This document shows, one piece after another, positions 34,915-48,805 of a stretch of DNA of 64,000 nucleotides. The stretch is taken from NCBI GenBank assembly GCA_964605885.1, contig CAZSED010000002.1:14502-78501 (forward strand), given 5' to 3'. The first letter of the stretch is position 1. Each line of letters opens with the position of its first letter. The position numbers and the translations under genes are program-made. This DNA is from an uncultured Dehalococcoidales bacterium (GTDB lineage Bacteria; Chloroflexota; Dehalococcoidia; GIF9; UBA5629). The notes under the pieces were generated by a model. It made no database searches and was not told the DNA's origin. It saw nothing but the letters and a program-made list of their open reading frames with translations.

Positions 34915-36221
34915 TGACGACCAAAGAAGTAAATTTCACCGTACATCACGTTGCACGCGTGGAGGGACACGGCAATATAATTGTCAACGCCAAAGACGGC
35001 AAGATCGAGGAGTGCAAGTGGGAGATACCGGAGTCTCCGCGCTTCTTCGAGTCAATGCTGCGCGGCCTGGACTACCGTGACGTGAACTTCATCGCCCCGC
35101 GCATCTGCGGCATCTGCGCAGTGGCGCACGCCACCGCATCCATCGAGGCCGCCGAGAAGGCCTTTAACGTCAAGCTCACCGAGCAGGCGCAGCTTGTGCG
35201 CCAGCTGCTGTTTGACGCCGAGACCGTCACCAGCCATGTGCTGCACACCTATTTCCTGGTGGCCCCCGATTTCTTCGGGGTAGGCAGCGTTATACCGCTG
35301 GCGGCCACACACACGGACGTGGTGCTGCGGGCGCTGCGCCTGAAAAAGGTGGCCAATGACTGGGCCGACATGCTGTGCGGCCGCAAGACGCATCCCATCT
35401 CCCAGGTGGCAGGCGGCTTCGTGAAGTGGCCGACCATCGAGCAGCTCAAGTGGCTCAAGCAGGCGCTTGAAGGGGACTACATGAAAGACCTGGAGATCAC
35501 AGTCGACCTCTTCAAGACGCTGAAGTTCCCCGATTTCGTTCGCGAGACCGAGTATATAGCCATAACCAAACCCGACGAGTATGCCTTTGTGAGCGGGTCG
35601 ACCGGTATGATCGGCTCCAGCGACGCCAAGCCGACGCCGGTAAACGATTACCTCAAGGTTACCAACGAGTTCTGCGTCCCGCAGTCGACCGCCAAGTGGA
35701 CAAAGCACCTCAGGGAGTCTTACCAGGTGGGCGCGCTGGCGCGCTTCAACGTCAACTATGACAGGCTGCATCCCAGGGCCAAGAAGGTCGCTCAGGCCCT
35801 GGGCATCAAGGCCCCCTGCTATAACCCCTTCTTCATCAGCGTGGCTCAGCTGGTTGAGATCATGCACGCCGTCGAGAACAGCATCATGATACTGGACAAG
35901 CTGCTGAGCAAGGGCATCAAGCAGGAGAAGCCCGAGGTCAAGGTCAAGGCCGGCCGGGGCGTGGGCTGCGTGGAAGCGCCGCGCGGCATCCTGTTCCACG
36001 ACTATACCTTTGACGACAACGGCAAGCTGATAGCCGCCAACATCATCATCCCCACCAACGAGAACCACAACAGCATCCAGCACGACTTCGAGAAGCTGCT
36101 GCCGGAGGTCATTGACCAGCCGCAGGACAAGATAAAGCTCACCATGGAGATGCTGGTCAGGGCCTATGACCCCTGCATCTCATGCTCCACCCACATGCTG
36201 GAAGTGAAGTTCAAGGAATAG
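34914..36221 (+). CDS. hyhL: Group 3b [NiFe] hydrogenase large (alpha) subunit
   Basis: RICGICAVAH (L1) and DPCISCSTH (L2) motifs. Confidence 0.8.
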   Translation: MTTKEVNFTVHHVARVEGHGNIIVNAKDGKIEECKWEIPESPRFFESMLRGLDYRDVNFIAPRICGICAVAHATASIEAAEKAFNVKLTEQAQLVRQLLFDAETVTSHVLHTYFLVAPDFFGVGSVIPLAATHTDVVLRALRLKKVANDWADMLCGRKTHPISQVAGGFVKWPTIEQLKWLKQALEGDYMKDLEITVDLFKTLKFPDFVRETEYIAITKPDEYAFVSGSTGMIGSSDAKPTPVNDYLKVTNEFCVPQSTAKWTKHLRESYQVGALARFNVNYDRLHPRAKKVAQALGIKAPCYNPFFISVAQLVEIMHAVENSIMILDKLLSKGIKQEKPEVKVKAGRGVGCVEAPRGILFHDYTFDDNGKLIAANIIIPTNENHNSIQHDFEKLLPEVIDQPQDKIKLTMEMLVRAYDPCISCSTHMLEVKFKE

Positions 36222-36228
36222 AATCTGT

Positions 36229-36365
36229 CATTGCGAGGCCCGATTTCATCGGGCCGTGGCAATCTCCCTGCCGCAAAACAAGAATAAAAGGGGCCGCCCG
36301 ATGGGCGGCCCTTGTTTGTTTTAAATGTCATTGCGAGCCCCCGATGCAATCGGCGCTCATCGCAT
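36229..36365 (+). repeat. Two further copies of the nested-hairpin dispersed repeat (GTCATTGCGAGG-CCCGATTTCATCGGGCC-GTGGCAATCTCC at about 36229, and a 3'-truncated copy at about 36326)
   Basis: Read directly; the cores are shared with 28646..28694 and with the 48-bp tandem unit. Confidence 0.7.
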
Positions 36366-36479: not shown

Positions 36480-37964
36480 ATGAAATGGCCTGACCTGCGG
36501 CATCTGGACGGCTACCTGCCTGCCGACATGGAGAGGGCATACCGCCGGCACTATCTCAAGGATGATACGCGCACCGCCATCATAACCATGTCCTTCCTGT
36601 GTATTCTGCTGGTGGCCTTCGCCTTCAACGATTACCTGCTCTTCGACCTGACAACCCGTTTCTATCTTCTCATTACCCTGAGGACCGCTTATCTGATTTA
36701 CTTCATTGTCCTTATTGTATTTTTCAGGCGCAATACCAGCCCCCGCAAGTACGACATTAACCTGCTGGTCTGGCTTGTTATGAGCACCATCATGGTGAGC
36801 ATAATCAACCTGACACGGCCCGCTTCCTACGGGGGTAACTTCCTTATAGACGTCATACTTATCCTGCTGGTCTACCTCTGCATGCCCATGCGGCTGGCCT
36901 TCAGGGCGGCGGGAGCGATAGCATTCACACTTGTTGATATTTACATCTTCTTTGTTCTGCGCTGGGCCATAGACACGCCTATCATGGCTTATACGGCTAT
37001 CTTCTCCCTGCTTGCCGCCAATATCGGCGGCCTGTTCGCGTCAGGCCTGCTCTATAGCTTCAGGCGCAGGGAGTTTCAGGCGCGCAGGGAGCGTGAGATC
37101 ATCGCCGACCAGTGGCAGACCACCTTTGACTCCATAACCGACATGATCTCCATACAGGATAAAGACTTCAGGCTGGTAAGGGTGAACAGGGCCTACGCCG
37201 ACCTGTTCGGCAAGAAGCCGGAGGAGCTGGTTGGCAGGCACTGCTATGAGATCGTACACCAGACGTCGCAGCCAGTAGATAACTGCCCTCATGGCCAGAC
37301 CATGCAGACGCTGAAAACGGTAACCGAGGAGGTAGCCGAGCCGCGCCTGGGCGTTGTCCTGGAAGTCACCACGTCGCCCATCATAAACGGAGACGGCGAG
37401 ATCGTCGGCACGGTGCACCTGGCCAAAGACATCAGCGAGCGCAAGCGGCTGCAGGAAAAGCTGGAGAAACTGTCCACGCACGATTTCCTGACCGGCCTGC
37501 CCAACCGACTGCTGCTGATAGACCGTTTTTCTATCGCATCAGCGCATGCTCTGCGGCACGGCGATAAGCTGGCGCTGATGTCGCTGGACCTGGACAAGTT
37601 TAAGCAGATAAACGACACCATGGGCCATGCGGCAGGAGACCAGGTGCTCAAGGCCGTGGCGGAGAGGCTGCGCGGCGCCGTGCGCGGCGATGACACGGTG
37701 GTGCGCATGGGCGGCGATGAGTTTGTAGTATTAATGCGCGACACCGGCAAACCCAAGGACATCGTGCGCATGTGCCAGAGGATACAGCAGGCCTTTGTAA
37801 AGCCTATAAATGTGGAAGGGGAGGAAGTGCACACCGCCGCCAGCATCGGAATCGCTATCTTCCCGGACCAGGGGACGGAACTGGATGAGCTCTCCAAGAA
37901 GTCCGACCAGGCCATGTACGAGGCCAAGAATGCCGGCCGCAACCGCTACACCTTCTATAAATAA
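36480..37964 (+). CDS. Membrane sensor diguanylate cyclase (multi-TM N-terminus, PAS, GGDEF)
   Basis: RMGGDEFVV active-site motif; a PAS-like segment with a Cys-rich HCYEIVHQ...CPHG. Confidence 0.75.
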   Translation: MKWPDLRHLDGYLPADMERAYRRHYLKDDTRTAIITMSFLCILLVAFAFNDYLLFDLTTRFYLLITLRTAYLIYFIVLIVFFRRNTSPRKYDINLLVWLVMSTIMVSIINLTRPASYGGNFLIDVILILLVYLCMPMRLAFRAAGAIAFTLVDIYIFFVLRWAIDTPIMAYTAIFSLLAANIGGLFASGLLYSFRRREFQARREREIIADQWQTTFDSITDMISIQDKDFRLVRVNRAYADLFGKKPEELVGRHCYEIVHQTSQPVDNCPHGQTMQTLKTVTEEVAEPRLGVVLEVTTSPIINGDGEIVGTVHLAKDISERKRLQEKLEKLSTHDFLTGLPNRLLLIDRFSIASAHALRHGDKLALMSLDLDKFKQINDTMGHAAGDQVLKAVAERLRGAVRGDDTVVRMGGDEFVVLMRDTGKPKDIVRMCQRIQQAFVKPINVEGEEVHTAASIGIAIFPDQGTELDELSKKSDQAMYEAKNAGRNRYTFYK

Positions 37965-38051
37965 GTCAACCGGTCCCGCTCTCACAAAATTTGACACATC
38001 CCCAATAATCCATCATAATCATTATGAGCATATGCTCATTATAGGAGTGTA

Positions 38052-38528
38052 ATGACAAGGCCGAGAAAATGCAGGCGTATAGCATTTATTCCAGGAGTGA
38101 CCTATTTCAAACCGGCGGGAATACCGCTCAGGTTTCTCGATGAGGTTTGCCTTTCACTGGAAGAGGCCGAGGCCATCCGGCTGAAGGATATTGAGGACCT
38201 TGACCAGGCAGGCTGCGCCGAGCGCATGAACGTGTCACGCCCGACAGTGCAGCGCATCATTGAATCGGCGCGCAAGAAAATGGCTGATGCCCTGCTTAAC
38301 GGCAAGGCCATCAGGATCGAGGGCGGCAATGTTGAGATGCTGCCAAAACGCTACATTTGCGAAAACGGCCATGAGTGGGATATTCCGCTTAAACAGGCGC
38401 TGGAAGAGTCATCCCTAGCCTGCCCGGTATGCACCAGCCCGGTAATTAATACATTGCCGGAAGTAGATTTCGGCTGGAGGCAGGGCGGGGGCAGAGGCAG
38501 ATGTCACAGGAGAGGTTTAAACCGCTGA
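38052..38528 (+). CDS. DUF134 (UPF0251) predicted DNA-binding protein
   Basis: MTRPRKCRRIAFIPGVTYFKPAGIP N-terminal signature and a C-terminal CxxC zinc ribbon. Confidence 0.7.
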   Translation: MTRPRKCRRIAFIPGVTYFKPAGIPLRFLDEVCLSLEEAEAIRLKDIEDLDQAGCAERMNVSRPTVQRIIESARKKMADALLNGKAIRIEGGNVEMLPKRYICENGHEWDIPLKQALEESSLACPVCTSPVINTLPEVDFGWRQGGGRGRCHRRGLNR

Positions 38529-38581
38529 ACGGGTCGATCAGCAGATATATAAACATTCAAACATTACAAAGGAGGACAAAG

Positions 38582-38857
38582 ATGCCTTACGGAAGAGGAT
38601 ATGGAATGGGAAGAGGATTTGGAATGGGCGGAGGTTTCCGGGGATCCTATGCAGCCTGGCCATATATCGGCCGCGGCAGGGGAGGCCTGCCCAGGTGCGG
38701 ATATTTCTTCGCCGGCCAGCCGTATTTACCGCCGGGATACACTACCCCGCTGCCTGACAACCTCAGTGCATTGAAGGATGAGGCTGCATACTTACAGGAA
38801 CACATGGCCCAGGTGCAGGCCAAAATCAGCGAGCTGGAACAGCAAAAGACCACATAG
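38582..38857 (+). CDS. DUF5320-like Gly/Arg-rich protein with a coiled-coil tail
   Basis: GRGYGMGRGFGMGGGFRG repeats then a coiled coil; AGGAGG RBS. Confidence 0.5.
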   Translation: MPYGRGYGMGRGFGMGGGFRGSYAAWPYIGRGRGGLPRCGYFFAGQPYLPPGYTTPLPDNLSALKDEAAYLQEHMAQVQAKISELEQQKTT

Positions 38858-38913
38858 TCTGCTGCCCACTTAAGGTCAGGCAGGCTCCTGAATAATAAAA
38901 AGGAGGAACTATC

Positions 38914-39183
38914 ATGCCAGGATTTGATGGTACAGGACCCGCTGGTCTGGGTCCGATGACAGGTGGAAGAAGGGGATTTTGCGCCCTGCCGCCGGGCAGC
39001 GCAGGGATCGCCTACCGCGGCAGGGTGGCCGGCGCATACAGAATGGCATACCCTGCTATGCCGGACAAGGAAGAGCTTGAGCTGCTAAGAAATGAATTTG
39101 CCATGCTGCAAAAAGAGCTTGAGGTAATCGAGCGCAGAATAAAAAGCATGGAAGCACAAAAAAGCCAGCAAGGAGGCCAGTAA
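38914..39183 (+). CDS. DUF5320-like protein, second paralog
   Basis: PGFDGTGPAGLGPMTGGRRGF N-terminus then a coiled coil. Confidence 0.5.
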   Translation: MPGFDGTGPAGLGPMTGGRRGFCALPPGSAGIAYRGRVAGAYRMAYPAMPDKEELELLRNEFAMLQKELEVIERRIKSMEAQKSQQGGQ

Positions 39184-39185
39184 AT

Positions 39186-39548
39186 ATGATATTAGCCATT
39201 ACTGCCAGTGGAGACCGCCTGGAATCGGATATTGATCCCCGTTTTGGCAGATGCAAATACTTCATCTTTGTCGATCCGGATACCATGGTTTTCGAGGCTG
39301 TGCCGAACTCTGGCACCGCGGGTGGCGCCGGCATCGCCGCCGGTCAGACCGTGGCTTTGTATAAGGCCAAAGCTGTGCTGACGGGCGACTGCGGGCCCAA
39401 TGCCTACCAGGTGCTGTCGGCCGCCGGCATTGAAGTTTTCACCGGCGTCTCGGGGAAAGTGAAGGACACAATCCGGGACTACAAGGCAGGTAAATTCAAA
39501 CCCATCACCCAGGCCAGTGTGCAGCCCCACCATGGACAACCGGGTTAG
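39186..39548 (+). CDS. NifX/NifB-type FeMo-cofactor-binding domain protein (MTH1175-like)
   Basis: MILAITASGDRLESDIDPRFGRCKYFIFVD is a classic Nitro_FeMo-Co N-terminus. Confidence 0.7.
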   Translation: MILAITASGDRLESDIDPRFGRCKYFIFVDPDTMVFEAVPNSGTAGGAGIAAGQTVALYKAKAVLTGDCGPNAYQVLSAAGIEVFTGVSGKVKDTIRDYKAGKFKPITQASVQPHHGQPG

Positions 39549-39598
39549 CGTCAGTTAAATCAAATACAAAAGGAACTATTTAAAAAGGAGGTCAAGAA

Positions 39599-39823
39599 AT
39601 GCCCAGAGGAGACATGACAGGCCCTCCCACGGGAGGAGCCGGCAGAGGAATGGGCCGCGGCAGGGGCCAGGGAGGCGGCAGGATGGGCGGCAACAGGCCC
39701 GGCGCAGGGCCGGGCGGCGAATGCGTCTGCCCCAAGTGCGGAGCTAAAGTTGCTCATCAGGTAGGTATGCCCTGTTATAACATCAGTTGCCCCAACTGCG
39801 GGACGAAAATGGCGAGAGTCTGA
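39599..39823 (+). CDS. Gly-rich small protein with a C-terminal Cys4 zinc ribbon
   Basis: GRGMGRGRGQGGGRMGG then CPKCG...CPNCG. Confidence 0.5.
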   Translation: MPRGDMTGPPTGGAGRGMGRGRGQGGGRMGGNRPGAGPGGECVCPKCGAKVAHQVGMPCYNISCPNCGTKMARV

Positions 39824-40684
39824 ATGATAGTATCTGTTGCCAGCGGTAAAGGCGGGACAGGTAAGACCCTCGTGGCCACCAGCCTCGCCATATCTATGGC
39901 GGAAAGGGAAAAGGTGCAACTGCTCGACTGCGACGTCGAGGAGCCCAACGATCACCTTTTTCTGAAACCGGTTATCACCGACAGGGAGGCTGTCAGCATG
40001 CCTGTCCCCAGGGTGGACTATGCCAGGTGCAACTTTTGCGGAGAATGTGCACAGGTATGCGCCTATAAGGCTATAGCCGTTGTGCCGGGGAGCGTGCTGG
40101 TTTTCGACCAGCTCTGCCACGGCTGTGGTGCCTGCAGCTACCTGTGCCCCAGGAGGGCAATCGTCGAAGAAAGCAGGGAGATGGGAGTCATTGAGTCAGG
40201 CGTTGCCAATGGCATCGATTTCGTCCAGGGCAGGCTTACCGTGGGTGAAGCGATGGCTGTGCCGGTGATCCGCCGGGTTAAAGCCAAGATTAAACGTGAT
40301 CTACTGGCCATACTCGATGTTTCACCCGGCACATCATGCCCGGTGGTGCAGGCCATCGAGGGCAGTGATTACTGCCTGCTGGTCACCGAGCCTACGCCTT
40401 TCGGTCTGCATGACCTGGAGCTGGCTGTAGAAACAGTCCACCAGCTCGGAATACCCTGCGGCGTGATCATTAACCGCGCCGTCAGCGGTGAGACGCTGGT
40501 GCATGAATATTGCCTGAGGGAGGGCATCCCTGTATTGCTGGAAATACCGCTCGACCGGGAGATTGCCCGCCTCTACTCCGAAGGGGTGACGCTGGCAGAG
40601 GGCAGGCCGCAATGGCAGGCTGAATTCAGGGCCGTATACACTAAAATCGAAGGAGTTGTACATGAAAGAAGTGGCCGTGCTTAG
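39824..40684 (+). CDS. MinD/Mrp-family P-loop ATPase with an inserted 2x[4Fe-4S] ferredoxin domain
   Basis: SGKGGTGKT deviant Walker A; CNFCGECAQVC and CHGCGACSYLCP. Confidence 0.7.
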   Translation: MIVSVASGKGGTGKTLVATSLAISMAEREKVQLLDCDVEEPNDHLFLKPVITDREAVSMPVPRVDYARCNFCGECAQVCAYKAIAVVPGSVLVFDQLCHGCGACSYLCPRRAIVEESREMGVIESGVANGIDFVQGRLTVGEAMAVPVIRRVKAKIKRDLLAILDVSPGTSCPVVQAIEGSDYCLLVTEPTPFGLHDLELAVETVHQLGIPCGVIINRAVSGETLVHEYCLREGIPVLLEIPLDREIARLYSEGVTLAEGRPQWQAEFRAVYTKIEGVVHERSGRA

Positions 40685-41525
40685 CGGCAAAGGCGGCACG
40701 GGAAAGACCAGCATCACCGGCTGCTTCGCTGCGCTGGCCAGCAAAAAAGTGCTGGCGGACTGCGATGTGGATGCGGCCGACCTGCATCTGCTGCTGCAAC
40801 CCGTAAACAGGCAAAGCGAGGAATTCTGGAGCGGGCAGCTTGCCCTGATCGACGAGGACAAATGCACAAAGTGCGGCCTCTGCCAGGAGCAATGCCGTTT
40901 CAATGCCATCCGCAATTTTAAGGTCAATCCTACTTTCTGCGAAGGATGCGGTTTCTGCTCACGCATCTGCCCTGCCTGCGCCATTAATATGCAGGATAAC
41001 CTGGCAGGCAAATGGTATATTTCAGATACCTTTTATGGCCCTCTGGTTCACGCACGGCTGGGCATAGCGCAGGAAAACTCGGGCAAGCTGGTGGCCCTGG
41101 TACGGCAGCATGCCAGGAAAATCGCCGAGGCAAAGGGCTGCACCACCATCATTACCGACGGGCCGCCCGGCATAGGCTGCCCCGTGATATCTTCGCTTTC
41201 CGGCGCCGACCTGGCCCTGCTGGTTACCGAGCCCACCGTGTCAGGCCTGCACGACCTGGAACGCATTATAGGCGTCTGCCGCCACTTTAAAGTTCCCGCC
41301 ACGGTCTGCATCAACAAATACGATATTAACGAGGAGAAGTCCTCAATTATTGAGAAATATTGCACCGGCAACGGGGTTAATGTTATCGGAAAGATACCCT
41401 TCGACACCACAGTTAATTCTGCGGTAGCCCACGGTATCCCGCTGGTCGAATACAAGGATAGCCCGGCGGCCGGGGAGATAAGAAAACTCTGGAAAAGCGT
41501 CAATTCACTTCTTTCAGCAAATTAA
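40662..41525 (+). CDS. MinD/Mrp-family P-loop ATPase with ferredoxin insert, second paralog
   Basis: SGKGGTGKTS; CTKCGLCQEQC and CEGCGFCSRICP. Confidence 0.7.
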   Translation: MKEVAVLSGKGGTGKTSITGCFAALASKKVLADCDVDAADLHLLLQPVNRQSEEFWSGQLALIDEDKCTKCGLCQEQCRFNAIRNFKVNPTFCEGCGFCSRICPACAINMQDNLAGKWYISDTFYGPLVHARLGIAQENSGKLVALVRQHARKIAEAKGCTTIITDGPPGIGCPVISSLSGADLALLVTEPTVSGLHDLERIIGVCRHFKVPATVCINKYDINEEKSSIIEKYCTGNGVNVIGKIPFDTTVNSAVAHGIPLVEYKDSPAAGEIRKLWKSVNSLLSAN

Positions 41526-41541
41526 CAATCAGGAGAACATT

Positions 41542-41778
41542 ATGCCTATTTATGACTACGCCTGCATCGACTGCGGGCACCACTTCGAGCACATGCACGC
41601 CATATCCGAAGCGGGCCGGCCGCAATGCCCATCCTGCGGCAGCAGCTCGGTGACCAAACTGATGTCAACTCCCGGCTTGATACGGGCCGCCAGGCTGCAC
41701 GGCAGCGGCACATGCTGTGGCAGGGAGGAGCGCTGTGACAGGCCTCCCTGTTCAACAGACGGACAGTGTCACAGATAA
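41542..41778 (+). CDS. FmdB-family zinc-ribbon regulatory protein
   Basis: MPIYDYACIDCGHHFE...CPSCGS signature. Confidence 0.7.
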   Translation: MPIYDYACIDCGHHFEHMHAISEAGRPQCPSCGSSSVTKLMSTPGLIRAARLHGSGTCCGREERCDRPPCSTDGQCHR

Positions 41779-41812
41779 TAGACAGCAATATTAAATAATC
41801 AAGGAGTTTAAT

Positions 41813-42151
41813 ATGAAATATGCAATACCCGTCACAGGAGGAATACTATCTGCGCACTTCGGCCATTGCGAACAGTTTGCCCTGATCCAGGCTGATGAAA
41901 AGAGCAGAACCATCCTTAAAAAAGAGCTGCTCCCTTCTCCCGGACACCAACCCGGCTTTTTGCCCCAGTGGCTGGCCGGAAAGGGTGTGGAGGTGGTTAT
42001 TGCCGGCGGCATGGGCGCCAGTGCCATCTCCCTCTTCCAGCAAAACGGCATCAATGTCCAGCTGGGGGCGCCGTCAGCCGATCCCGAGAGCGTGATTGCC
42101 GACTATTTGAACGGCAACCTGGCAACAGGTGATAACCGCTGCGACCACTGA
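41813..42151 (+). CDS. NifX/NifB-type FeMo-cofactor-binding domain protein, second paralog
   Basis: MKYAIPVTGGILSAHFGHCEQFALI...VVIAGGMG. Confidence 0.65.
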   Translation: MKYAIPVTGGILSAHFGHCEQFALIQADEKSRTILKKELLPSPGHQPGFLPQWLAGKGVEVVIAGGMGASAISLFQQNGINVQLGAPSADPESVIADYLNGNLATGDNRCDH

Positions 42152-42229
42152 GGGCGCGGCCATGCTGGCAAATTGTGGATAAATATCGGCAGCCCGGCAG
42201 CAATAAGAAGCAAAACGGACAATAAAACC

Positions 42230-42898
42230 ATGAAAACTGTGAAGGCAGCGTCTCCATTTGATCGGCATGCGGCTGGTTACGACCGCTGGTACGATGAAAA
42301 GGATGGCAAAATCATTTTCGCCACTGAAGTTAAAGCCTTGCAGGAAGTCTTGCCCGGGCTGCCCAAGCCATGGCTTGAAGCAGGGGTAGGCAGCGGCCGC
42401 TTTGCCAGTGCGCTTGGCATTAGGACCGGGATAGACCCGTCAGCCAGGCTCCTGCAGAAAGCTAAATCTCGCGGCATCATCACCATAAAAGGCAGGATAG
42501 AAGACCGGATTATACCTCTGGAAAGCTTCGGAACCGTTTTTCTTATCATGACGCTGTGTTTTCTTGACAATCCGGGCCTTGCGCTGCGCGAGATCCACCG
42601 CATTCTTAAACCCCAAGGAAAGCTTGTGCTGGGAGAGGTGCCGGCTTACAGTCCCTGGGGCCAACTATTCCGTCAGAAAAAGCGTGATGCCCATCCATTC
42701 TATAAATATGCTAATTTCTACACCTTCGATGACTTAGCGAGCATGCTGGAAAATGCCGGTTTTGATATCTGCATGACCGTCTCGACGCTGGTGCAAAAAC
42801 CGGGAAAGCTGCAGGCTGTTGAAATTCCTTTAAACGACTACTGCGAGGACGCAGGATTCCTGGTAATTGTTGGAGTTAAAACAAAGGCTTCGCTTTAA
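42230..42898 (+). CDS. Class I SAM-dependent methyltransferase
   Basis: LEAGVGSGRF motif I; Methyltransf_11-like. Confidence 0.6.
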   Translation: MKTVKAASPFDRHAAGYDRWYDEKDGKIIFATEVKALQEVLPGLPKPWLEAGVGSGRFASALGIRTGIDPSARLLQKAKSRGIITIKGRIEDRIIPLESFGTVFLIMTLCFLDNPGLALREIHRILKPQGKLVLGEVPAYSPWGQLFRQKKRDAHPFYKYANFYTFDDLASMLENAGFDICMTVSTLVQKPGKLQAVEIPLNDYCEDAGFLVIVGVKTKASL

Positions 42899-42906
42899 GG
42901 CATTAT

Positions 42907-43680
42907 ATGTCAATTATTTACGGTCCAGTCCCCTCCTGGCGGCTGAAAAGGTCGCTCGGAATCGACATGGTCTGCACTAAAGGCAAAACATGCTCCTTTG
43001 ACTGCGTTTACTGCCAGCTGGGCGATACACTTAATAAAGAGGCCTGCAGAAGTGAGTTCGTTACAATCGATAGCCTGCAGAAGGAGCTGGAACTGTTGCC
43101 GCCTGTGGAGGCAGATTATGCCACCTTTTCCGGTGTTGGAGAGCCGACGCTCGCCGCCAACCTCGGCAAGGCCATTGAAACAGTAAGAAGTTCGCTGCAA
43201 ATCCCCGTGGCGGTATTAACCAATTCCTCTCTGCTGTATGACAAGAGTGTACGTGGAGATCTGGCCGGTGCTGACACAGTGGTAGCCAAGCTGGATGCGG
43301 CTGATGACGATATGCTGCGACGGTTGAACAGGCCTGTATTCAGCCTGTCGGTTCACCAGATAATTGATGGCTTGAAGGCATTTCGCTATATCTTTTCCGG
43401 CAAGCTGGCTATCCAGATTATGTTTATACAAATCAACCGCGAAAAAGCTGCTGAACTGGCCTCGCTGGTGAAAGAACTGGCGCCGGACGAAATTCAGATC
43501 AATACTCCTCTCAGACCGTGCGCAATTAAACCTTTAGATCCGGCTGATCTATCACAAATAAGCAGCCATTTCTCCGGCTTGAAAAGCGTCATCACGGTGT
43601 ATGAAGCTGAAAAAAGGGCTGTTGCGCCACTGGACCGGCAGCAAACGGAACGACGCAGGCCTGAAGCGAAGCAGACATGA
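42907..43680 (+). CDS. Radical SAM domain protein
   Basis: CSFDCVYC (CxxxCxxC) near the N-terminus; GVGEPTL glycine-rich SAM motif. Confidence 0.65.
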   Translation: MSIIYGPVPSWRLKRSLGIDMVCTKGKTCSFDCVYCQLGDTLNKEACRSEFVTIDSLQKELELLPPVEADYATFSGVGEPTLAANLGKAIETVRSSLQIPVAVLTNSSLLYDKSVRGDLAGADTVVAKLDAADDDMLRRLNRPVFSLSVHQIIDGLKAFRYIFSGKLAIQIMFIQINREKAAELASLVKELAPDEIQINTPLRPCAIKPLDPADLSQISSHFSGLKSVITVYEAEKRAVAPLDRQQTERRRPEAKQT

Positions 43681-43844
43681 ACGCCATAGGGTCGGCAGTG
43701 ACTTCCTGTCCGGACAACTATTATATGCTGCTTACCCTGACAGGGAGTATAATTTTTATGAGGCTGGCTTCAGGCGCAAGCATGATACTGGCCCCAACTG
43801 AATCTGTGTGATATCACTGGGTAAACTATGTGACGGTGTAAAAT

Positions 43845-44135
43845 ATGGACAATTTTGATCTCGAACCCAAATATAGTTCCAACGAGGTGCCCGGCAAATG
43901 CCTCAAGTGCCTGGCGGAGAAAGAGCTGAACAGCTGCCTGTTCGGATTGCTGGGCGAGCAGACCAGTGACGCCGAGCTGCAAGAGCGGTATTCTGCCCTG
44001 CTGGCACTGCTGCAGTCTCCCAACTTTGAAAATCTGCGCAGCCAGGCCGAGAGACTGCTTTCGGAGGGCAAGCAGGTCAAGGTTAAAGTCAATTTTAATA
44101 AAGATGGTCTTCAGTGTGAATTAATTTCCGAGTAA
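43845..44135 (+). CDS. Hypothetical protein
   Basis: 96 aa; CLKCL pair only. Confidence 0.35.
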   Translation: MDNFDLEPKYSSNEVPGKCLKCLAEKELNSCLFGLLGEQTSDAELQERYSALLALLQSPNFENLRSQAERLLSEGKQVKVKVNFNKDGLQCELISE

Positions 44136-44150
44136 AAAGGGAGTGTCAAT

Positions 44151-44549
44151 ATGAAAATAGCAGTAGTGACTGATGACGAGACCACTGTCAGCCAGCATTT
44201 TGGCCGGGCTGAGTATTACGAGGTTTTTACCGTTGAAGACGGTCAAATCACGGCGAAAGAGCGGCGCGATAAAATGGGGCACCGCCATTTCGTCCACGGT
44301 GAGGGCGGCCACGGCGCAGGTGAGGGTCAGCACGGCTATGATGCCGATTCCCAGAGAAAGCATGCCAGCATGGCCGAAACCATCAAGGATTGCCAGGTAT
44401 TGATTGCCGGCGGAATGGGCATGGGGGCTTTCGACAGCATGAAAAGCTATAACATCGAGCCTGTCATAACCGACGTCACCGACGCCGAGACGGCCGTTAA
44501 ACTGTATGCCGAAGGCAAATTGCCCAACCTGATAGGCCGTTTGCACTAG
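44151..44549 (+). CDS. NifX/NifB-type domain protein with an internal His-rich insertion
   Basis: MKIAVVTDDETTVSQHFGRAEYYEVF...VLIAGGMG scaffold interrupted by HRHFVHGEGGHGAGEGQHGYDADSQRKH. Confidence 0.6.
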   Translation: MKIAVVTDDETTVSQHFGRAEYYEVFTVEDGQITAKERRDKMGHRHFVHGEGGHGAGEGQHGYDADSQRKHASMAETIKDCQVLIAGGMGMGAFDSMKSYNIEPVITDVTDAETAVKLYAEGKLPNLIGRLH

Positions 44550-44606: not shown

Positions 44607-45443
44607 TTGTATATGGAAGTCAAAATCACCACTCTGAGCGAGAATACAGCCACCCGCGGCAGCCTGGCTGAATGGGGTTTGAGCCTGCTTGTAGAGGCTG
44701 ACGGCAAGAAGATACTAATGGATACCGGCAGCGGCATAGCTGCCACTCACAACGCCGACCTCATGCACATAGACCTGGCCGATACTGACACCATCATCCT
44801 GAGCCACGGGCATAGAGACCATACCGGGGGACTGCTTCAGATATTGAAAAGGACCGGAGCAAGGGAGATCATCGCCCACCCGGATATAAACAAATCCAGA
44901 TATGTCCGCATTGGGGACATGTATGATGATATCAGCATGCCCTTTACGGAAAAAGAATTAGTAAGTGCGGGGGCACATTTCAAGTACAGCAGGGAGCCTG
45001 TCAGCATTACAGAACACATAATTACAACTGGTGAAATAGCCCTGCTGTCAGACTTCGAGGCTATTGACGAAAACCTGTTTATTAAAGAAGATGGTGAATT
45101 CAAACCTGATGATGTGCAGGACGACCTGGCCCTGATAATCAATACCGCAAAGGGGCTCGTGGTTTGCTGCGGATGCACACACAGGGGTTTGATAAACACT
45201 CTTAGCAGGGCGCGCCAGCTAACCGGTGAAGAAAGAATCTATGCGGTCATCGGCGGAATCCATCTGGTCCGCGCCGGGACTGAGCGCATCGAGAGGACGA
45301 TAGCCGAGCTGCAGGAATGGGATATCAAGCGATTATATGTATCACACTGCACCGGGTTTGCAGCTTCCGCCCGCCTAGCGCAGGCCTTCGGCAGCGCTTT
45401 CGCGCTGAATAACGCAGGCACCCGGATTGTTTTACCTGCTTAA
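44607..45443 (+). CDS. MBL-fold metallo-hydrolase
   Basis: ILSHGHRDHTGG motif. Confidence 0.65.
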   Translation: MYMEVKITTLSENTATRGSLAEWGLSLLVEADGKKILMDTGSGIAATHNADLMHIDLADTDTIILSHGHRDHTGGLLQILKRTGAREIIAHPDINKSRYVRIGDMYDDISMPFTEKELVSAGAHFKYSREPVSITEHIITTGEIALLSDFEAIDENLFIKEDGEFKPDDVQDDLALIINTAKGLVVCCGCTHRGLINTLSRARQLTGEERIYAVIGGIHLVRAGTERIERTIAELQEWDIKRLYVSHCTGFAASARLAQAFGSAFALNNAGTRIVLPA

Positions 45444-45527
45444 ATACAGCGTGGCCAGGTTGCCGTGTTCCATTTTTCGCCTGCCTTGCCCGCAGCTAGC
45501 CCTTCAAGTACAATTCAACTGAACCCG

Positions 45528-47825
45528 ATGGCAAAAGGCACACAAATTCAACTTGCCCGCATCAGCGCACGCGGCGTCGTGCAGGGAGTCGGCTTCAGGC
45601 CCTTCGTCTACGGGCTGGCTAAAAAACACAAACTCAACGGCTGGGTCTGCAACACCTCGGAGGATGTGAAGATCGAGGTCGAGGGCGACAGAAAAACACT
45701 CGACCTTTTTATCTCGGACCTGGAGCACAAGGCCCCGCCGCTGGCGCGTATAGAGGGCATATCCGTCAGCTTTGACGCACCGGCCGGCTACAAGGGGTTC
45801 GAGATACGCCACAGCATGGCGCAGCCGGGCAAGTACCAGCTCGTCTCACCGGATATAGCAACCTGCAGGCCCTGCCTGGAGGACGTGTTCACACAGGGCA
45901 ACCGCCGCTGGCATTACCCCTTCACCAACTGCACCAACTGCGGCCCGCGCTTCACCATCATCAAGGACATCCCCTATGACCGGCCACTGACCACCATGTC
46001 GGTCTTCAAGATGTGCCCGGACTGCCAGCGCGAGTACGAGGACCCGCTGGACCGCCGCTTTCACGCCCAGCCCAACGCCTGCCCGGTCTGCGGCCCCCGC
46101 CTTGAGCTGACCGACAGCCGGGGGGTGCCCTTGGAATGCGAAGATATCATAGAAAAAACGGCCTCCCTGCTGCATGAGGGCAGGATTATAGCCATCAAGG
46201 GCCTGGGAGGCTTCCTGCTGGCCTGCAGCGCCGAAAATCAGCAGTCTGCAACTCTGCTCAGGCAGCGCAAGAGAAGGCCCTCCAAGCCCTTCGCCGTCAT
46301 GCTCAGGGACATTGATGCAGTCAGGTTGCACTGCGGGATCACTGCGGAGGAGGAGAAGCTGCTGCTCTCACCGCAGAGCCCCATCGTGCTTCTGCCGTGG
46401 AAGCCCGGCTCGAGCATCTGCCGGGAGGTGGCGCCGGCGCTCAAATACCTGGGCGTGATGCTGCCCTATACACCGCTGCACCATTTAATACTCAGGGAGT
46501 CGGGCCTCCCCCTAATTATGACCAGCGGTAACATCAGCGAGGAGCCGATAGCCGGCGAGAACAACGAGGCGCTGCGCAGGCTGGGCAATATAGCCGACTT
46601 CTTCCTGCTGCATAACCGTGATATCTACTCGACCTACGACGACAGCGTGGCCATGGTAGTGGAGGGCGCGCCGCAGCTTGTGCGGCGGGCCAGGGGCTAC
46701 GCACCCTATCCGGTCCATCTCGATTTCAACGTCCCCCAGATACTGGCCTGCGGCGCTGAGGAGAAGAACACCTTTTGCCTCACGCGTGACAACCACGCCT
46801 TCGTCAGCCAGCACATCGGCGATATGGAGAACCTGGAGACCATGCAGCACTTCGAGCGCACGGTGGAGCTGTATAAGAAGCTGTTCAGAATAGAGCCGCA
46901 AGTAATAGCTTACGACAAGCACCCCGAGTACCTGCCCACCAAGTACGCACAGGAACAGGCCGGAAAGCTGGGAATCAGGGCGGTATCCGTCCAGCACCAC
47001 CACGCACACATTGCCTCCTGCATGGCGGACAACGGCCTGCAGGAGCCGGTCATCGGCCTGGCCTTCGACGGCACGGGCTACGGCATAGACGGCCATATCT
47101 GGGGCGGCGAGTTCCTGGTGGCAGACTATAAGGGGTTCGAGCGCGTGGGGCAGCTGGAGTACCTGCCGCTTCCGGGCGGCGCGCTGGCCATCAAGAAGCC
47201 CTACCGCATCGCCGTGGGCTACATGCTTTCGCTGCTGGGGCCCGAGGCCTTCGACCGAAGGCTGGGCTTTCTCAGGGCCATCGAGCCGGACGAGCTGCCG
47301 CTGATCAGCCGCCAGATAGAATCGCACATCAATACCCCGCTGACCTCCAGCCTGGGCAGGCTGTTCGACGCCGTATCCGCCCTGGCCGGCGTGCGCTCCG
47401 CCATAGATTATGAGGCGCAGGCCGCCATCGAGCTGGAGATGAGGTCATACGAAGCTCCTGACGAGAAGGGCATCTATCCCTTCTTCGTGACCGCGGACGA
47501 ACACTATCACGTCGTGCTGCTGCACGGCCTGATATCTTCCGTGGTGGACGACCTGCTCAGGGGCTGCAGCGCCGCCACGGTGGGCATGCGCTTCCACAAC
47601 ACGCTGGCGGTCATGGCGCGCGATGTCTGCCTCAGGATACGGGAGCAGCATAAAATTGATCGGGTGGCGCTGAGCGGCGGCTGCTTCCAGAACCGCCTGC
47701 TGCTGGTCAAAACGATGGCGGCGCTCAAGGAAGCGGGCTTCAGGGTGCTGACCCACAGCCAGGTGCCCTGCAACGACGGCGGCATATCTCTGGGCCAGGC
47801 CGTGATAGCGGCATCTATGAATTAG
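45528..47825 (+). CDS. hypF: [NiFe] hydrogenase maturation carbamoyltransferase HypF
   Basis: Acylphosphatase-like N-terminus (VQGVGFRPFVY), two CxxC...CxxC zinc fingers, YrdC and Kae1-like regions; 766 aa from MAKGTQ. Confidence 0.85.
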   Translation: MAKGTQIQLARISARGVVQGVGFRPFVYGLAKKHKLNGWVCNTSEDVKIEVEGDRKTLDLFISDLEHKAPPLARIEGISVSFDAPAGYKGFEIRHSMAQPGKYQLVSPDIATCRPCLEDVFTQGNRRWHYPFTNCTNCGPRFTIIKDIPYDRPLTTMSVFKMCPDCQREYEDPLDRRFHAQPNACPVCGPRLELTDSRGVPLECEDIIEKTASLLHEGRIIAIKGLGGFLLACSAENQQSATLLRQRKRRPSKPFAVMLRDIDAVRLHCGITAEEEKLLLSPQSPIVLLPWKPGSSICREVAPALKYLGVMLPYTPLHHLILRESGLPLIMTSGNISEEPIAGENNEALRRLGNIADFFLLHNRDIYSTYDDSVAMVVEGAPQLVRRARGYAPYPVHLDFNVPQILACGAEEKNTFCLTRDNHAFVSQHIGDMENLETMQHFERTVELYKKLFRIEPQVIAYDKHPEYLPTKYAQEQAGKLGIRAVSVQHHHAHIASCMADNGLQEPVIGLAFDGTGYGIDGHIWGGEFLVADYKGFERVGQLEYLPLPGGALAIKKPYRIAVGYMLSLLGPEAFDRRLGFLRAIEPDELPLISRQIESHINTPLTSSLGRLFDAVSALAGVRSAIDYEAQAAIELEMRSYEAPDEKGIYPFFVTADEHYHVVLLHGLISSVVDDLLRGCSAATVGMRFHNTLAVMARDVCLRIREQHKIDRVALSGGCFQNRLLLVKTMAALKEAGFRVLTHSQVPCNDGGISLGQAVIAASMN

Positions 47826-47924
47826 GCGTTAAGGAAGGGCGCAAATGAAACCTTTGTTTCCCTGTGTTACAATAGCCCAAAACTGTTGTCGGAAAGAGCA
47901 GCAGAAAACGGAGGTAGGAAGAAG

Positions 47925-48359
47925 ATGCCACAAAAGAACCTGGTTATATGTGCAATATATATCTCGGACAAGAAAGAACCCAGCTTGAATCGGGCAGATA
48001 TTAGTTTTATAGCTGCTAGATATAAGCCCGGTACCTCAAATACGACTGCGCTTGCCAGGAAATCGTTTTACAAGCTTCCCAAGAAGGATATGAATAAATG
48101 GATTCAGCTAAGCGTGGATATAACCGCCCCCTCGGTGCTGCTTGGGCCCAATCAGCGTGTAGCGTTCTTGTTGTACGAGCATGATCCCCACCCGGACAAA
48201 AGCTGGACATACGATGCCAGCTATGCACCCCTCCACTATACCTCCTTGGATTCGCCTTATGGCAGCATTTATATGAACTACAATGATTTCGCAGGCAATC
48301 CAACCAAAGAATATGCTCTAAGCGGTGCGAAGGTCAAAATACGCAGCTATGATGTATAG
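47925..48359 (+). CDS. Hypothetical protein
   Basis: GGAGGTAGG RBS before MPQKNL; no recognised domain. Confidence 0.4.
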   Translation: MPQKNLVICAIYISDKKEPSLNRADISFIAARYKPGTSNTTALARKSFYKLPKKDMNKWIQLSVDITAPSVLLGPNQRVAFLLYEHDPHPDKSWTYDASYAPLHYTSLDSPYGSIYMNYNDFAGNPTKEYALSGAKVKIRSYDV

Positions 48360-48763: not shown

Positions 48764-48805
48764 CCTGCCGGAGCCAAAGCTGCATTTCCGATGAAAAGGA
48801 GGCCT

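Follow-up and report, generated by a model that had tools for sequence, protein, structure and literature searches.

A probable self-contained ORP-type system beside [NiFe] hydrogenase genes in an uncultured Dehalococcoidales bacterium

In the window analysed here (64,000 nucleotides from an uncultured Dehalococcoidales bacterium), a run of genes for NifX-like proteins, MinD-type ATPases and small Cys-rich proteins lies between two [NiFe] hydrogenases and the hyp maturation genes, raising the question of whether it serves these hydrogenases or constitutes a system of its own. A preliminary description presented the assembly as lacking an assigned function; this overlooked the literature on the orange protein (ORP) complex, which itself leaves the function unsettled. 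We consider it probable that the operon spanning 37991 to ~45443 is a self-contained ORP-type system. The cluster is a Chloroflexi version of the ORP complex, in its non-deltaproteobacterial form; the complex, carried by most strict anaerobes, probably serves iron-sulfur or metal-sulfide cluster handling. The ORP machinery is anaerobe-specific and was first described in Desulfovibrio (Orp3, 4, 5, 8 and 9), and known clusters of this type are orp3-5 and orp7-9 of Desulfovibrio and AF2378-2380 of Archaeoglobus.

Sequence comparison demonstrated that the core parts are homologous to ORP, to MrpORP's Di-Nase domain and to the Orp3/Orp4 architecture. The families named in the preliminary description were all confirmed on the + strand, coordinates included, with significant Pfam or NCBIfam scores. 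The first NifX-like protein, an Orp8 homologue (39186-39548; PF02579 E 4.7e-20), is a single-domain NifX-like/Di-Nase protein whose best solved-structure match was 2WFB, the ORP of D. gigas (E 5.4e-16), with MTH1175 next. The second (41813-42151; PF02579 E 1.5e-19) scored 121 bits against the NCBIfam MrpORP model, aligning to positions 265-365 in the Di-Nase region, and has both motifs, HFGHCE and a C-terminal CDH, that characterise the MrpORP Di-Nase domain (PMC6345978). The third (44151-44549; PF02579 E 6e-16) bears a His-rich insert that was kept in its orthologues at three other loci (L004, L008 and L011), where the gene invariably comes after an AF_2379 gene.

Both MinD-type ATPases (39824-40684, CbiA E 1.5e-17 plus Fer4 families; 40656-41525, CbiA/MinD) carry an inserted 2x[4Fe-4S] ferredoxin and share the architecture of the Desulfovibrio Orp3/Orp4 type (COG1149). 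ATPase 1 has a deviant Walker A motif (GKGGTGKT) and eight ferredoxin cysteines, with C36, C172 and C230 invariant, and its AlphaFold model (pLDDT 90.5) adopts a MinD/SIMIBI fold; none of the solved structures searched belonged to the MinD-ferredoxin ATPase family. ATPase 2 is its paralogue, with 32% identity. Unlike Desulfovibrio, in which the N-terminal domain of Orp9 is an Mrp P-loop partner, the window encodes no such partner and contains no NifU, which counts against the ORP reading.

The core is accompanied by small proteins, most of them Gly/Arg- or Cys-rich. DUF5320 protein a (38582-38857; Pfam DUF5320 E 1e-8), whose start was inferred from orthologues since the reading frame opens at 38501, combines a Gly/Arg/aromatic-rich N-terminal half (residues 1-50: G 32%, R 12%, aromatic 22%) with a C-terminal coiled coil, while protein b (38914-39183; E 1.9e-12) pairs an MPGFDGTGP...GRRGFC motif with a coiled coil and has orthologues with long GRGWGRG repeats in many phyla. 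A third protein previously grouped with them (39599-39823) lacks both a Pfam DUF5320 match and a coiled coil, and has only an N-terminal MPxxDxTGP...GRG motif in common with the other two. It is a Gly/Arg-rich double-ribbon protein with six Cys and one His (CxCPxCG...H...PC...CPxCG; zinc-ribbon Pfam matches below threshold) and represents a separate conserved family, present in 26/80 genome loci and 21/36 metagenome loci; L031, L062 and L082 encode fusions of this type of ribbon with a NifX-like domain. For the FmdB-type zinc ribbon (41542-41778; Zn_ribbon_8 E 4e-17, TIGR02605 E 2e-18), an orthologue alignment revealed conservation of the Cys-rich tail (TCCGRxERCxxPPCSxxGxCxR). Its gene occupies the place of orp5, directly behind the two ATPase genes (PMC8359166), so that by analogy of position it may correspond to Orp5. 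Overlooked by the preliminary description was a CxxC protein of 96 aa that belongs to the AF_2379 family (43845-44135, + strand; orthologues annotated PF27306 AF_2379) and shows a conserved GKCxKCL motif in alignment; AF2379 of A. fulgidus sits between NifX and CbiA genes (PMC3949148).

Three enzymes complete the unit. A class I SAM-dependent methyltransferase (42230-42898; Methyltransf_23/_11 E 1e-14) is a recurrent accessory gene; L001, L002, L010, L012 and L085 also have it paired with a radical SAM gene. The radical SAM gene of the window encodes a small COG0731-type enzyme (42907-43680; PF04055 E 9e-11) with CX3CX2C at residues 29-36; its matches to MoaA, W-cofactor maturase and viperin were all weak, and its closest folds were viperin-like (TM about 0.6). 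Among the 79 related loci of at least 12 kb, a radical SAM gene was found in 25, archaea included, and an MBL-fold gene near 21; the unit here probably extends to the MBL-fold metallo-hydrolase gene at 44607-45443 (+ strand; Lactamase_B E 1.5e-12).

We fetched 160 related loci from the genomes of many anaerobic bacterial and archaeal phyla, including 80 species-representative genome loci and 36 metagenome loci. The gene order recurs in these 160 loci, placing the cluster far beyond chance, and the cluster is kept across many anaerobic phyla. A MinD2 homologue accompanied MinD1 in 78/80 genome loci (adjacent, with a gap of <400 bp, in 72), a NifX-family gene was present in 75/80, and all 36 metagenome loci contained the ATPase pair together with a NifX-family gene. 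The commonest extra neighbours in the 79 longer loci were Mrp/ApbC (45) and NifU/IscU (29), followed by DUF364 (18) and Fur (13). Elsewhere, PF02579 was reported in 65% of anaerobes vs 7.5% of aerobes (PMC13386939), expression of the orp genes is confined to about -425 mV (PMC8359166), and AF2378-2380 expression is constitutively high (PMC3949148).

The genes are preceded by a promoter of their own and by a conserved palindromic operator. A sigma-70-type promoter (TTGACA-17-CATAAT, 37991-38019, + strand), matching 11/12 consensus positions, was the best site in 12.5 kb, and an alignment of 16 orthologous upstream regions showed its TTGACA and spacing to be conserved. The palindrome ATGAGCATATGCTCAT (38024-38039) follows the -10 element and precedes the ribosome-binding site; even with up to 3 mismatches allowed, it is matched nowhere else in the window. 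Allowing <=2 mismatches, it was found upstream of 36/44 DUF134 genes, compared to 1.5% of random windows, and its conservation spans four phyla: Chloroflexota, Zixibacteria, Ignavibacteria and Desulfobacterota. This phylogenetic footprint predicts that the palindrome is the binding site of the DUF134 protein (UPF0251; 38052-38528; Pfam DUF134 E 1.6e-25, Sigma70_r4_2 E 3e-7), in which a helix-turn-helix is combined with a Cx3H...CPxC ribbon at the C-terminus and a tail rich in Gly/Arg. In an alignment of 24 orthologues, C103, C124 and C127 were kept in 16-17 and the tail was also conserved; a DUF134-ORP fusion gene occurs in L046. We predict that DUF134 is probably an autoregulating repressor and sensor; alternatively, the palindrome could be bound by a Fur-family protein, which some clusters encode. 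The Desulfovibrio counterpart in this role differs, being OrpR, an Fe-S-containing sigma-54 activator.

These findings support a general metal-sulfur trafficking role for the cluster. Proposed in general form by the preliminary description as metal or Fe-S trafficking or scaffolding, this idea is supported by the ORP-complex homologues, by the Mrp/ApbC and NifU/IscU neighbours, and by the in vitro passage of Fe-S clusters from MrpORP to Orp3-Orp4-Orp8 (PMC6345978). A NifX-like domain is common to IssA, NifX and NifB, and in IssA this domain is extended by a cationic Gly/aromatic tail, which binds thioferrate (PMC5524996). In the mechanism we envisage, the two MinD-type ATPases would form an ATP-dependent dimer whose ferredoxin inserts transfer electrons, and the NifX-like proteins would act as non-covalent carriers or scaffolds of anionic Fe-S or metal-sulfide species. 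The Gly/Arg/aromatic-rich DUF5320 proteins may bind such anionic species electrostatically, as the IssA tail does, while the FmdB-type, Gly/Arg-Cys ribbon and AF_2379 proteins may hold or hand over simple clusters. The radical SAM enzyme and methyltransferase would together modify a substrate, and DUF134 repression at the palindrome would be lifted by a redox or metal-sulfur signal.

An alternative view is that the MinD-like ATPases are spatial regulators in a cell-division or positioning system whose metal centres do no more than sense redox state. The authors who studied the Desulfovibrio complex favour a link to cell division; OrpR inactivation causes morphological defects, MrpORP is found at the poles, and Orp3 and Orp4 have a MinD-like C-terminal amphipathic helix (PMC6345978, PMC8359166). 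MinD and FleN were the closest solved folds of the ATPase here, and its model ends in a long C-terminal helix (residues 262-284). However, no MinC, MinE or other division gene was found in any neighbourhood examined, the recurrent neighbours being Mrp, NifU, Fur, ferredoxins and the radical SAM enzyme; the system is also present in archaea, whose division machineries differ, and the Desulfovibrio authors themselves termed the role unclear (PMC8359166). We regard this explanation as unlikely.

Similarly improbable is a role in Mo/W-sulfur handling, with NifX-like proteins binding thiomolybdate-type clusters for Mo/W/Cu sulfide storage, detoxification or supply to cofactor enzymes. ORP as isolated contained a Mo-Cu sulfide cluster, [S2MoS2CuS2MoS2], according to work cited in PMC6345978; the A. 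fulgidus authors suggested a Mo cofactor role (PMC3949148), a molybdopterin oxidoreductase flanks L002, and the best NCBIfam matches of the radical SAM protein, albeit far below threshold, were W-cofactor maturase and MoaA. Nevertheless, mod, moa and moe genes were absent among the recurrent neighbours, the frequent partners instead being Fe-S scaffold or carrier genes and Fur; no Moco or other riboswitch was detected in 28-53 kb of the window, and in MrpORP it is an Fe-S cluster, not Mo, that the Di-Nase domain binds (PMC6345978).

Returning to the ORP-type system and its hydrogenase surroundings, the context given in the preliminary description was confirmed, with MvhDGA and a four-subunit group-3b-type [NiFe] hydrogenase upstream, and hypF, hypC, hypD, hypE and a HycI-type protease downstream. 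It was also correct that hypA and hypB are missing from the window (no trace with the probes used), and the HypA/HypB Pfam families were absent among called genes ~10 kb past either end on near-identical contigs. From this position it had suggested a dedicated cofactor system that could stand in for HypA/HypB. In a module of this kind dedicated to the hydrogenases, the MinD-type ATPases and zinc ribbons would replace HypB and HypA in nickel insertion, or the cluster would supply Fe-S clusters or the Fe centre specifically to the adjacent enzymes. As a precedent, a Mrp/MinD-type ATPase serves as HypB in Thermococcus. This ATPase-type HypB was among the fold matches (3VX3/5AUQ, TMt 0.71), and NifX-like 3 has its conserved His-rich insert. 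In the window, L001 and L085, hypF comes after the cluster in the same orientation, and Mvh genes are found no more than 10 kb away in the window, L001 and L130.

Nonetheless, neighbourhood counts, L084 and the transcriptional signals make this reading very improbable. HypF, HypC and HypD occurred in 0/80 species-representative loci, HypF and Mvh in 2 each of the 79 longer loci, and hydrogenase or hyp genes within 10 kb in 3/15 well-flanked Dehalococcoidia-like loci and 2/26 from other phyla; besides the window, only four related contigs had them near the cluster, and of the distant cases one was real and two doubtful. L084 (MinD 78% identical) has the cluster, NifU and Mrp without a hydrogenase, and in both L084 and L002 the complete cluster is accompanied by NifU, Mrp and Fur instead; the AF_2379-NifX-like 3 pair also occurs in loci without hyp genes. 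The ATPase fold is no nearer to ATPase-type HypB than to MinD or FleN, its sequence scored 47 bits against the former vs 74 bits against MinD, and FmdB matched the HypA model below threshold, over the ribbon only and lacking the MHE motif.

Moreover, the cluster is not wedged directly against the hydrogenases, as had been claimed: a strong bidirectional intrinsic terminator (36289-36313, + strand; 11-bp stem with 9 G-C pairs, then a T run, on both strands), a PAS-GGDEF gene (36480-37964) and the dedicated promoter lie in between. The terminator closes the upstream sulfhydrogenase-type operon, making the hydrogenases a separate transcription unit, and together with the separate promoter and unique operator it sets the cluster apart from them. 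The adjacency is a local quirk inherited within a small Dehalococcoidia sub-lineage, reflecting no more than joint expression in strongly reducing conditions and not a role in nickel insertion, although hypF behind the cluster in three related contigs, and Mvh genes near it in three, leave room for a lineage-specific functional tie. After the MBL-fold gene, a weak hairpin (45448-45469) precedes a promoter-like site (45486-45514), and since the hairpin is weak, read-through from the MBL gene into hypF is possible.

The cluster is a variant of the known orange protein (ORP) complex type of system and is not confined to this genome; the window does not reveal a new route of hydrogenase maturation. 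Among the window ORFs, 14 densely spaced genes lie on the + strand between 38052 and 45443, and Pfam and NCBIfam searches bore out the families listed in the preliminary description, with four corrections. These searches assigned a DUF134 protein (38052-38528), two DUF5320 proteins (38582-38857 and 38914-39183), three PF02579 NifX-like proteins (39186-39548, 41813-42151 and 44151-44549), an FmdB zinc ribbon (41542-41778), a class I methyltransferase (42230-42898) and a radical SAM enzyme (42907-43680). Two further genes (39824-40684 and 40656-41525) encode P-loop ATPases of the CbiA/MinD type that both have a two-cluster ferredoxin as an insert. The product of 39599-39823, previously taken for a third DUF5320-type protein, has only an N-terminal MPxxDxTGP...GRG motif in common with that family; it contains a six-Cys, one-His double ribbon and belongs to a distinct, strongly conserved family of its own, here called the Gly/Arg-Cys ribbon protein. 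The families named earlier stand, but the list was incomplete, having overlooked a 96-residue AF_2379-family CxxC protein (43845-44135). An MBL-fold gene (44607-45443) is probably part of the unit.

The two ATPases are paralogues of 32% identity, and the nearest named homologues of the first come from metagenome-assembled genomes of Dehalococcoidia (Chloroflexota; 77-78% identity). Both carry the deviant Walker A motif GKGGTGKT, which is typical of dimeric SIMIBI ATPases, and in both the eight ferredoxin cysteines are invariant together with three more (C36, C172 and C230). In the AlphaFold model, which is confident (pLDDT 90.5), C172 opens the helix that comes after the Walker B strand. Its nearest solved folds, with TM-scores alike, were MinD/FleN, ApbC, the Thermococcus ATPase-type HypB and NifH/BchL; no member of the ferredoxin-bearing ATPase family was found among the solved structures searched.

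The DUF5320 proteins consist of a Gly/Arg/aromatic-rich N-terminal half followed by a coiled coil, with 32% G, 12% R and 22% aromatic residues in the N-terminal half of the first. Among related loci fetched from other genomes and metagenomes (numbered L001 onward), the DUF5320 protein of L031 has long GRGWGRG repeats, and the L004 orthologue of the first DUF5320 gene encodes a ferredoxin fused to DUF5320. Best NCBIfam matches of the radical SAM protein were to the W-cofactor maturase, MoaA and viperin, all far under cut-offs, and a profile search against PDB sequences returned weak viperin-like matches alone. Its AlphaFold model is mediocre (pLDDT 69.7) and matches generic radical SAM cores, the nearest being viperin-like. 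The third NifX-like protein bears a His-rich insert, GHRHFVHGEGGHGAGEGQHGYDADSQRKHA, which may be a metal site; the His positions are kept in the orthologues of L004, L008 and L011, and there the gene always follows an AF_2379-family gene. Our literature search found nothing on the function of DUF134, DUF5320, UPF0251, COG1149, COG1433 or COG1342.

Assignment to the ORP system draws on the solved ORP of D. gigas, the MrpORP model of NCBIfam and what has been published on the Desulfovibrio proteins. The NCBIfam search of the cluster proteins led to MrpORP, which serves as Fe-S carrier in the orange protein complex of Desulfovibrio: the second NifX-like protein (41813-42151) scored 121 bits, against a cut-off of 450, over positions 265-365 of this model, its Di-Nase half. 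The same protein has xHFGHCE near its start and CDH at its end, the Di-Nase domain signatures given by the MrpORP authors (PMC6345978). For the first NifX-like protein, ORP1 (39186-39548), the best solved-structure match was the D. gigas orange protein (2WFB; E 5.4e-16, residues 3-99), followed by MTH1175. The ORP complex comprises Orp3, Orp4, Orp5, Orp8 and Orp9 (MrpORP), and the operons are orp3-orp4-orp5 and orp7-orp8-orp9 (PMC6345978, PMC8359166); the founding work of 2011 is taken here as conveyed by PMC6345978, PMC8359166 and PMC3897727. Orp3 and Orp4 are paralogous ATPases with two [4Fe-4S] motifs each (PMC6345978), and the window likewise has tandem MinD-type ATPases, both with CbiA and Fer4 families. 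Also shared are a single-domain NifX-like orange protein (Orp8) and a Di-Nase domain with the HFGHCE...CDH motifs. In Desulfovibrio the ATPases are followed by Orp5, a small Cys-rich protein homologous to a [2Fe-2S] protein (PMC6345978, PMC8359166); in the window an FmdB ribbon with a conserved five-Cys tail occupies the Orp5/Dde_3197 position and is a candidate counterpart, judged by position and description. Both forms occur in anaerobes only: all 80 genome loci (80/80) came from anaerobic lineages, and PF02579 is found in 65% of anaerobes versus 7.5% of aerobes (PMC13386939).

The window and Desulfovibrio forms differ in several respects. The former is one operon, while the latter consists of two divergent operons. 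The Di-Nase domain of the window is free-standing, whereas Desulfovibrio Orp9 fuses it to an Mrp/NBP35 P-loop; neither an Mrp homologue nor its P-loop domain was found in the 64-kb window, and related loci carry Mrp as a separate gene. Relative to Desulfovibrio, the window adds the two DUF5320 proteins, the Gly/Arg-Cys ribbon, the radical SAM enzyme, the methyltransferase, the AF_2379-family protein, the third NifX-like protein and the MBL-fold protein. Equivalent genes in A. fulgidus, AF2378 (NifX), AF2379 and AF2380 (CbiA family), show constitutive high expression (PMC3949148), the 96-residue window protein being of the AF_2379 family.

Regulation differs as well. Desulfovibrio relies on the sigma-54 activator OrpR with IHF, whereas the window has DUF134, a sigma-70 promoter and a palindrome, and no sigma-54 enhancer-binding protein was found at the cluster. 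A near-consensus promoter (TTGACA-17-CATAAT, 37991-38019; 11 of 12 positions) lies 33 bases ahead of the DUF134 start, and directly after its -10 element stands the perfect palindrome ATGAGCATATGCTCAT (38024-38039). This 16-bp palindrome occurs in a single copy in the 64-kb window, even at three mismatches, and was not found at the hydrogenase and hyp promoters of the window. In the fetched loci, ATGNNCATATGNNCAT was present upstream of 36 of the 44 DUF134 genes having enough upstream sequence (within 160 bp of the start, at most two mismatches in 12 fixed positions), mostly 31-88 bp before the start, while only 1.5% of random 170-bp windows drawn from these loci gave an equally good match. 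When aligned, the upstream regions of loci in Chloroflexota, Zixibacteria, Ignavibacteria and Desulfobacterota have one layout: TTGACA, ~17 nt, an A/T-rich -10, the palindrome, a ribosome-binding site and ATG. Changes at the inner variable positions are symmetrical in some loci (GAGC/GCTC, GGAC/GTCC, GAAC/GTTC), and in L001 and L011 these positions are unpaired between the halves. An RNA hairpin was rejected, since the L001 and L011 halves would form A-C mismatches; the unpaired positions better fit a dimeric or degenerate protein site. Location over the transcription start suggests that the predicted operator acts in repression.

The most economical candidate for the operator-binding protein is DUF134. 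This HTH protein shows a relationship to sigma-70 region 4, and its gene is the first one 3' of the operator. Most orthologues have a Gly/Arg tail together with a Cx3H...CPxC ribbon at the C terminus, and in one Desulfobacterales genome (L046, 665-1462) DUF134 is fused to an orange-protein domain. Alternatively, a Fur-family protein, encoded in 13 of 79 listed clusters, might bind the palindrome; the window, however, carries the operator with no Fur homologue in 64 kb, and the position of the operator follows the DUF134 start codon. A second exact copy of ATGAGCATATGCTCAT in L084 (6078-6093), ~160 bp upstream of a DUF364/DUF4213 gene, hints that the putative DUF134 regulon may reach past the core cluster. 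By analogy, the same logical place in Desulfovibrio would be filled by OrpR, an Fe-S-containing activator that turns on the orp operons only at ~-425 mV and is reported as confined to Deltaproteobacteria (PMC8359166).

A further likeness is to IssA of Pyrococcus furiosus, an iron-sulfur storage protein that is known for thioferrate nanoparticles and belongs, like the window proteins, to the IPR003731/PF02579 domain clade. MTH1175 has been placed in the clade of IssA, which binds Fe and S through its NifX-like domain and has a cationic Gly/aromatic tail that was proposed to wrap anionic thioferrate (PMC5524996). In the window, too, a cationic Gly/Arg/aromatic-rich disordered sequence goes with the domain, a likeness seen in genes and domain descriptions, with the thioferrate particles belonging to IssA itself. 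Unlike in IssA, the domain and the Gly/Arg-rich segments are encoded by separate genes, the segments bear a coiled coil or a Cys ribbon, and ATPases and Cys-rich proteins accompany them. Three genomes (L031, at 9428-10000, L062 and L082) nonetheless encode the Gly/Arg-Cys ribbon and the NifX-like domain in one polypeptide, fused as in IssA. Such domain fusions point, by analogy, to IssA-like electrostatic binding of anionic metal-sulfide species.

The nitrogenase cofactor line (NifB, NifX/NafY and NifH) similarly combines a radical SAM enzyme, NifX-like carriers and a dimeric SIMIBI ATPase bearing Fe-S clusters, and the window ATPases have an invariant Cys 7 residues past the Walker B Asp, presumably the same spacing as that of NifH Cys132. 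NifB, however, usually unites radical SAM and NifX-like domains, and the window radical SAM protein was rejected as NifB because it had no nifB NCBIfam match and its nearest folds were viperin-like. In addition, the window ATPases belong to the MinD/CbiA family whereas the nitrogenase line uses NifH, and no NifEN or NifDK-like scaffold is present at the cluster. With the Mrp/NBP35/ApbC carriers the window ATPases share the deviant Walker A motif (GKGGxGKT) and an Fe-S context, but they are devoid of the FeS_assembly_P domain and the CxxC bridging motif and have a full ferredoxin domain per subunit instead.

MrpORP passes Fe-S clusters to Orp3-Orp4-Orp8, and its own Di-Nase domain binds an Fe-S cluster (PMC6345978). 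For the window, we propose that an ATPase dimer, driven by ATP and with electron input, would load or unload an anionic Fe-S or metal-sulfide species carried by the NifX-like proteins and stabilised by the Gly/Arg-rich proteins. Small Cys-rich proteins would serve as cluster donors or acceptors, and Mrp and NifU would feed the system in those loci that encode them alongside. A more specific version pictures an IssA split into separate parts, in which the orange-protein domain and the free-standing DUF5320 and Gly/Arg-Cys ribbon proteins would nucleate, store or pass anionic iron-sulfide, e.g. thioferrate, while the ferredoxin-bearing MinD ATPases would power and reduce the process. DUF134, which has a Cys ribbon and a Gly/Arg tail like that of the cluster proteins, would sense the same iron-sulfide species and autoregulate the operon via the palindrome, and the setting of the operon upstream of hypF in this Dehalococcoidia lineage would bring hydrogenase maturation under the same signal. 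Taken as a whole, comprising function, sensing and hypF placement, this version is tentative and rather unlikely to be right. A role with Mo- or W-sulfide would fit the Mo-Cu cluster of native ORP and the weak radical SAM similarities, but the cluster has neither a Moco riboswitch nor Mo-cofactor genes, and we consider such a role quite improbable; an Rfam scan of 28-53 kb returned one tRNA and no riboswitch or regulatory RNA. The cell-division role that has been suggested for Desulfovibrio appears to us similarly improbable here, as none of the neighbourhoods contains a division gene.

The preliminary description saw the cluster as wedged between hydrogenase and maturation genes. It is flanked by both, but the hydrogenases do not directly abut it. 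The upstream side holds the genes of MvhD, MvhG and MvhA (29339-32176) and of a four-subunit sulfhydrogenase-type (group-3b) [NiFe] enzyme (32290-36221), making two [NiFe] hydrogenase operons in tandem (29339-36221), an arrangement also retained in the relative L001. A strong bidirectional terminator (36289-36313; 11-bp stem, 9 G-C pairs, T run) closes the hydrogenase operon, and a PAS-GGDEF gene for a membrane-anchored diguanylate cyclase (36480-37964) lies between this terminator and the cluster promoter. Together, the terminator and the separate promoter indicate that the cluster is transcribed apart from the hydrogenase structural genes. The MBL gene is followed only by a hairpin (45448-45469) and a promoter-like site, both of them weak, and read-through into hypF (45528-47825) is conceivable. 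The hyp gene run is itself broken up (47886-49831), by a 157-aa ORF (47886-48359) between hypF and hypC (48530-48763), the latter preceded by a terminator-like and a promoter-like site, and by a PD40 beta-propeller lipoprotein gene (48791-49831) between hypC and hypD; hypD, hypE and a HycI-type protease gene follow.

As noted previously, hypA and hypB are missing from the window: tblastn with approximate probes found neither, the best match of the E. coli HypB probe having E 0.02 over 18 residues, and both were absent among Pfam-annotated genes ~10 kb past either window end in near-identical contigs. A zinc-ribbon ORF (23168-23509, 113 aa) that weakly matched the HypA probe was on reading not HypA. 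HypA (Pfam PF01155) has an N-terminal MHE nickel site plus a zinc ribbon, and the FmdB protein was rejected as HypA: its score of 16.5 bits falls short of the cut-off (28.9) and comes from the ribbon alone, and its sequence starts with MPIYDY, not MHE. None of the cluster proteins gave a Pfam or NCBIfam match to the CobW/HypB/UreG GTPase domain, which in GTPase-type HypB (G3E family) has a Cys-His metal site. The cluster resembles the HypA/HypB system in its SIMIBI P-loop fold (TMt 0.71 to 3VX3/5AUQ), its zinc-ribbon protein and its adjoining hyp genes. The ATPase-type HypB of Thermococcales, which is encoded beside hypA and acts together with it, was also rejected as an identity for the window ATPases, given that the window is without hypA, the fold likeness is generic, the sequence score falls below that to MinD and a ferredoxin insert is present which, to our knowledge, occurs in no known HypB.

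The species-representative scan (one genome per species) yielded 80 loci, scored with all window proteins by tblastn, the counts of small low-complexity proteins being lower bounds. The loci span Dehalococcoidia, Desulfobacterota, Omnitrophota, Ignavibacteria, Zixibacteria, Clostridia, Planctomycetota, Bathyarchaeia, methanogens, Altiarchaeota and others. The ATPase pair was present in 78 of the 80 (tandem in 72) and any NifX-family gene in 75, followed by FmdB (29), the Gly/Arg-Cys ribbon (26), DUF134 (20), the radical SAM enzyme (18) and MBL (15). HypF, HypC and HypD were each found in 0/80, MvhA in one (a Bathyarchaeota contig) and a weak HydA-like match in one. At least 84 more loci came from a metagenome scan and four look-ups of close homologues. 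L001 (78% identity) keeps the window order of Mvh and Hyd, cluster and HypF, with no PAS-GGDEF gene at the corresponding position; L085 (70%) has the order cluster-Mrp-MBL-CCG-HypF with no hydrogenase upstream; L130 (67%) has Mvh downstream and convergent; and L066 (Bathyarchaeota, 51%) has a real MvhA homologue (63% identity) ~6 kb upstream. Weak matches in L031 (HydA-like, 23% identity) and L027 (HypE-like, 22%) are probably paralogues. Among well-flanked listed loci (at least 6 kb upstream and 8 kb downstream), hydrogenase or hyp genes lay within 10 kb in 3 of 15 Dehalococcoidia-like loci and in 2 of 26 from other phyla, the latter being about the level of chance proximity. In L084, which is as close to the window as L001, the cluster is flanked by NifU, AF_2379, Mrp, a CsoR-type repressor, DUF364 and ferredoxin, and no hydrogenase was found at the locus. 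Among the additional neighbours in the 79 listed loci of at least 12 kb, the most frequent were Mrp/ApbC (45), NifU/IscU-like (29), DUF364 (18), ferredoxin (16) and Fur (13), compared with HypF (2) and Mvh (2). Thus, the hydrogenase neighbourhood is a trait of a small sub-lineage and not of the system. Although hypF linkage in three related contigs, the local absence of hypA/hypB and the precedent of a MinD/Mrp-type HypB in Thermococcales favor a hydrogenase-specific role, we judge it very improbable, because the cluster, unlike HypA/HypB, is distributed independently of hydrogenase and hyp genes, has a separate promoter and contains no HypA/HypB family signature. For these same reasons the earlier proposal, made from position, that the cluster replaces HypA/HypB at the nickel-insertion step is not supported; the evidence does support the more general reading, a system for trafficking metal or Fe-S cofactors.

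The NifX-like/MinD-ferredoxin gene set is among the most widespread anaerobe-specific modules. If confirmed, the proposed function would be relevant to the way in which strict anaerobes make or store Fe-S clusters directly from sulfide, and an IssA divided among separate genes, if true, would give these organisms a route of Fe-S supply that starts from sulfide and runs alongside ISC and SUF. What is new, and provides testable handles, is the predicted DUF134-ATGAGCATATGCTCAT regulator-operator pair, kept across four bacterial phyla; the fusions by which the orange-protein domain is linked with Gly/Arg-rich proteins and with the regulator; and the extended parts list of the non-Desulfovibrio form, namely DUF5320, the Gly/Arg-Cys ribbon, the FmdB ribbon with its Cys tail, AF_2379, and the radical SAM and methyltransferase pair.

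Elsewhere in the window, a low-GC stretch (24000-28300; 0.46-0.49 versus ~0.56) adjoins a tRNA gene (28184-28255, - strand) and may represent an acquired island; encoded there are a DUF1214/DUF1254 pair, a DUF1801 protein and, at 26285-26812, an archaellin-like protein (PF01917). Outside the cluster there is another gene of the AF_2379 family (L166, 1376-1654), ~8 kb past the 3' end of the window on a near-identical 295-kb contig.
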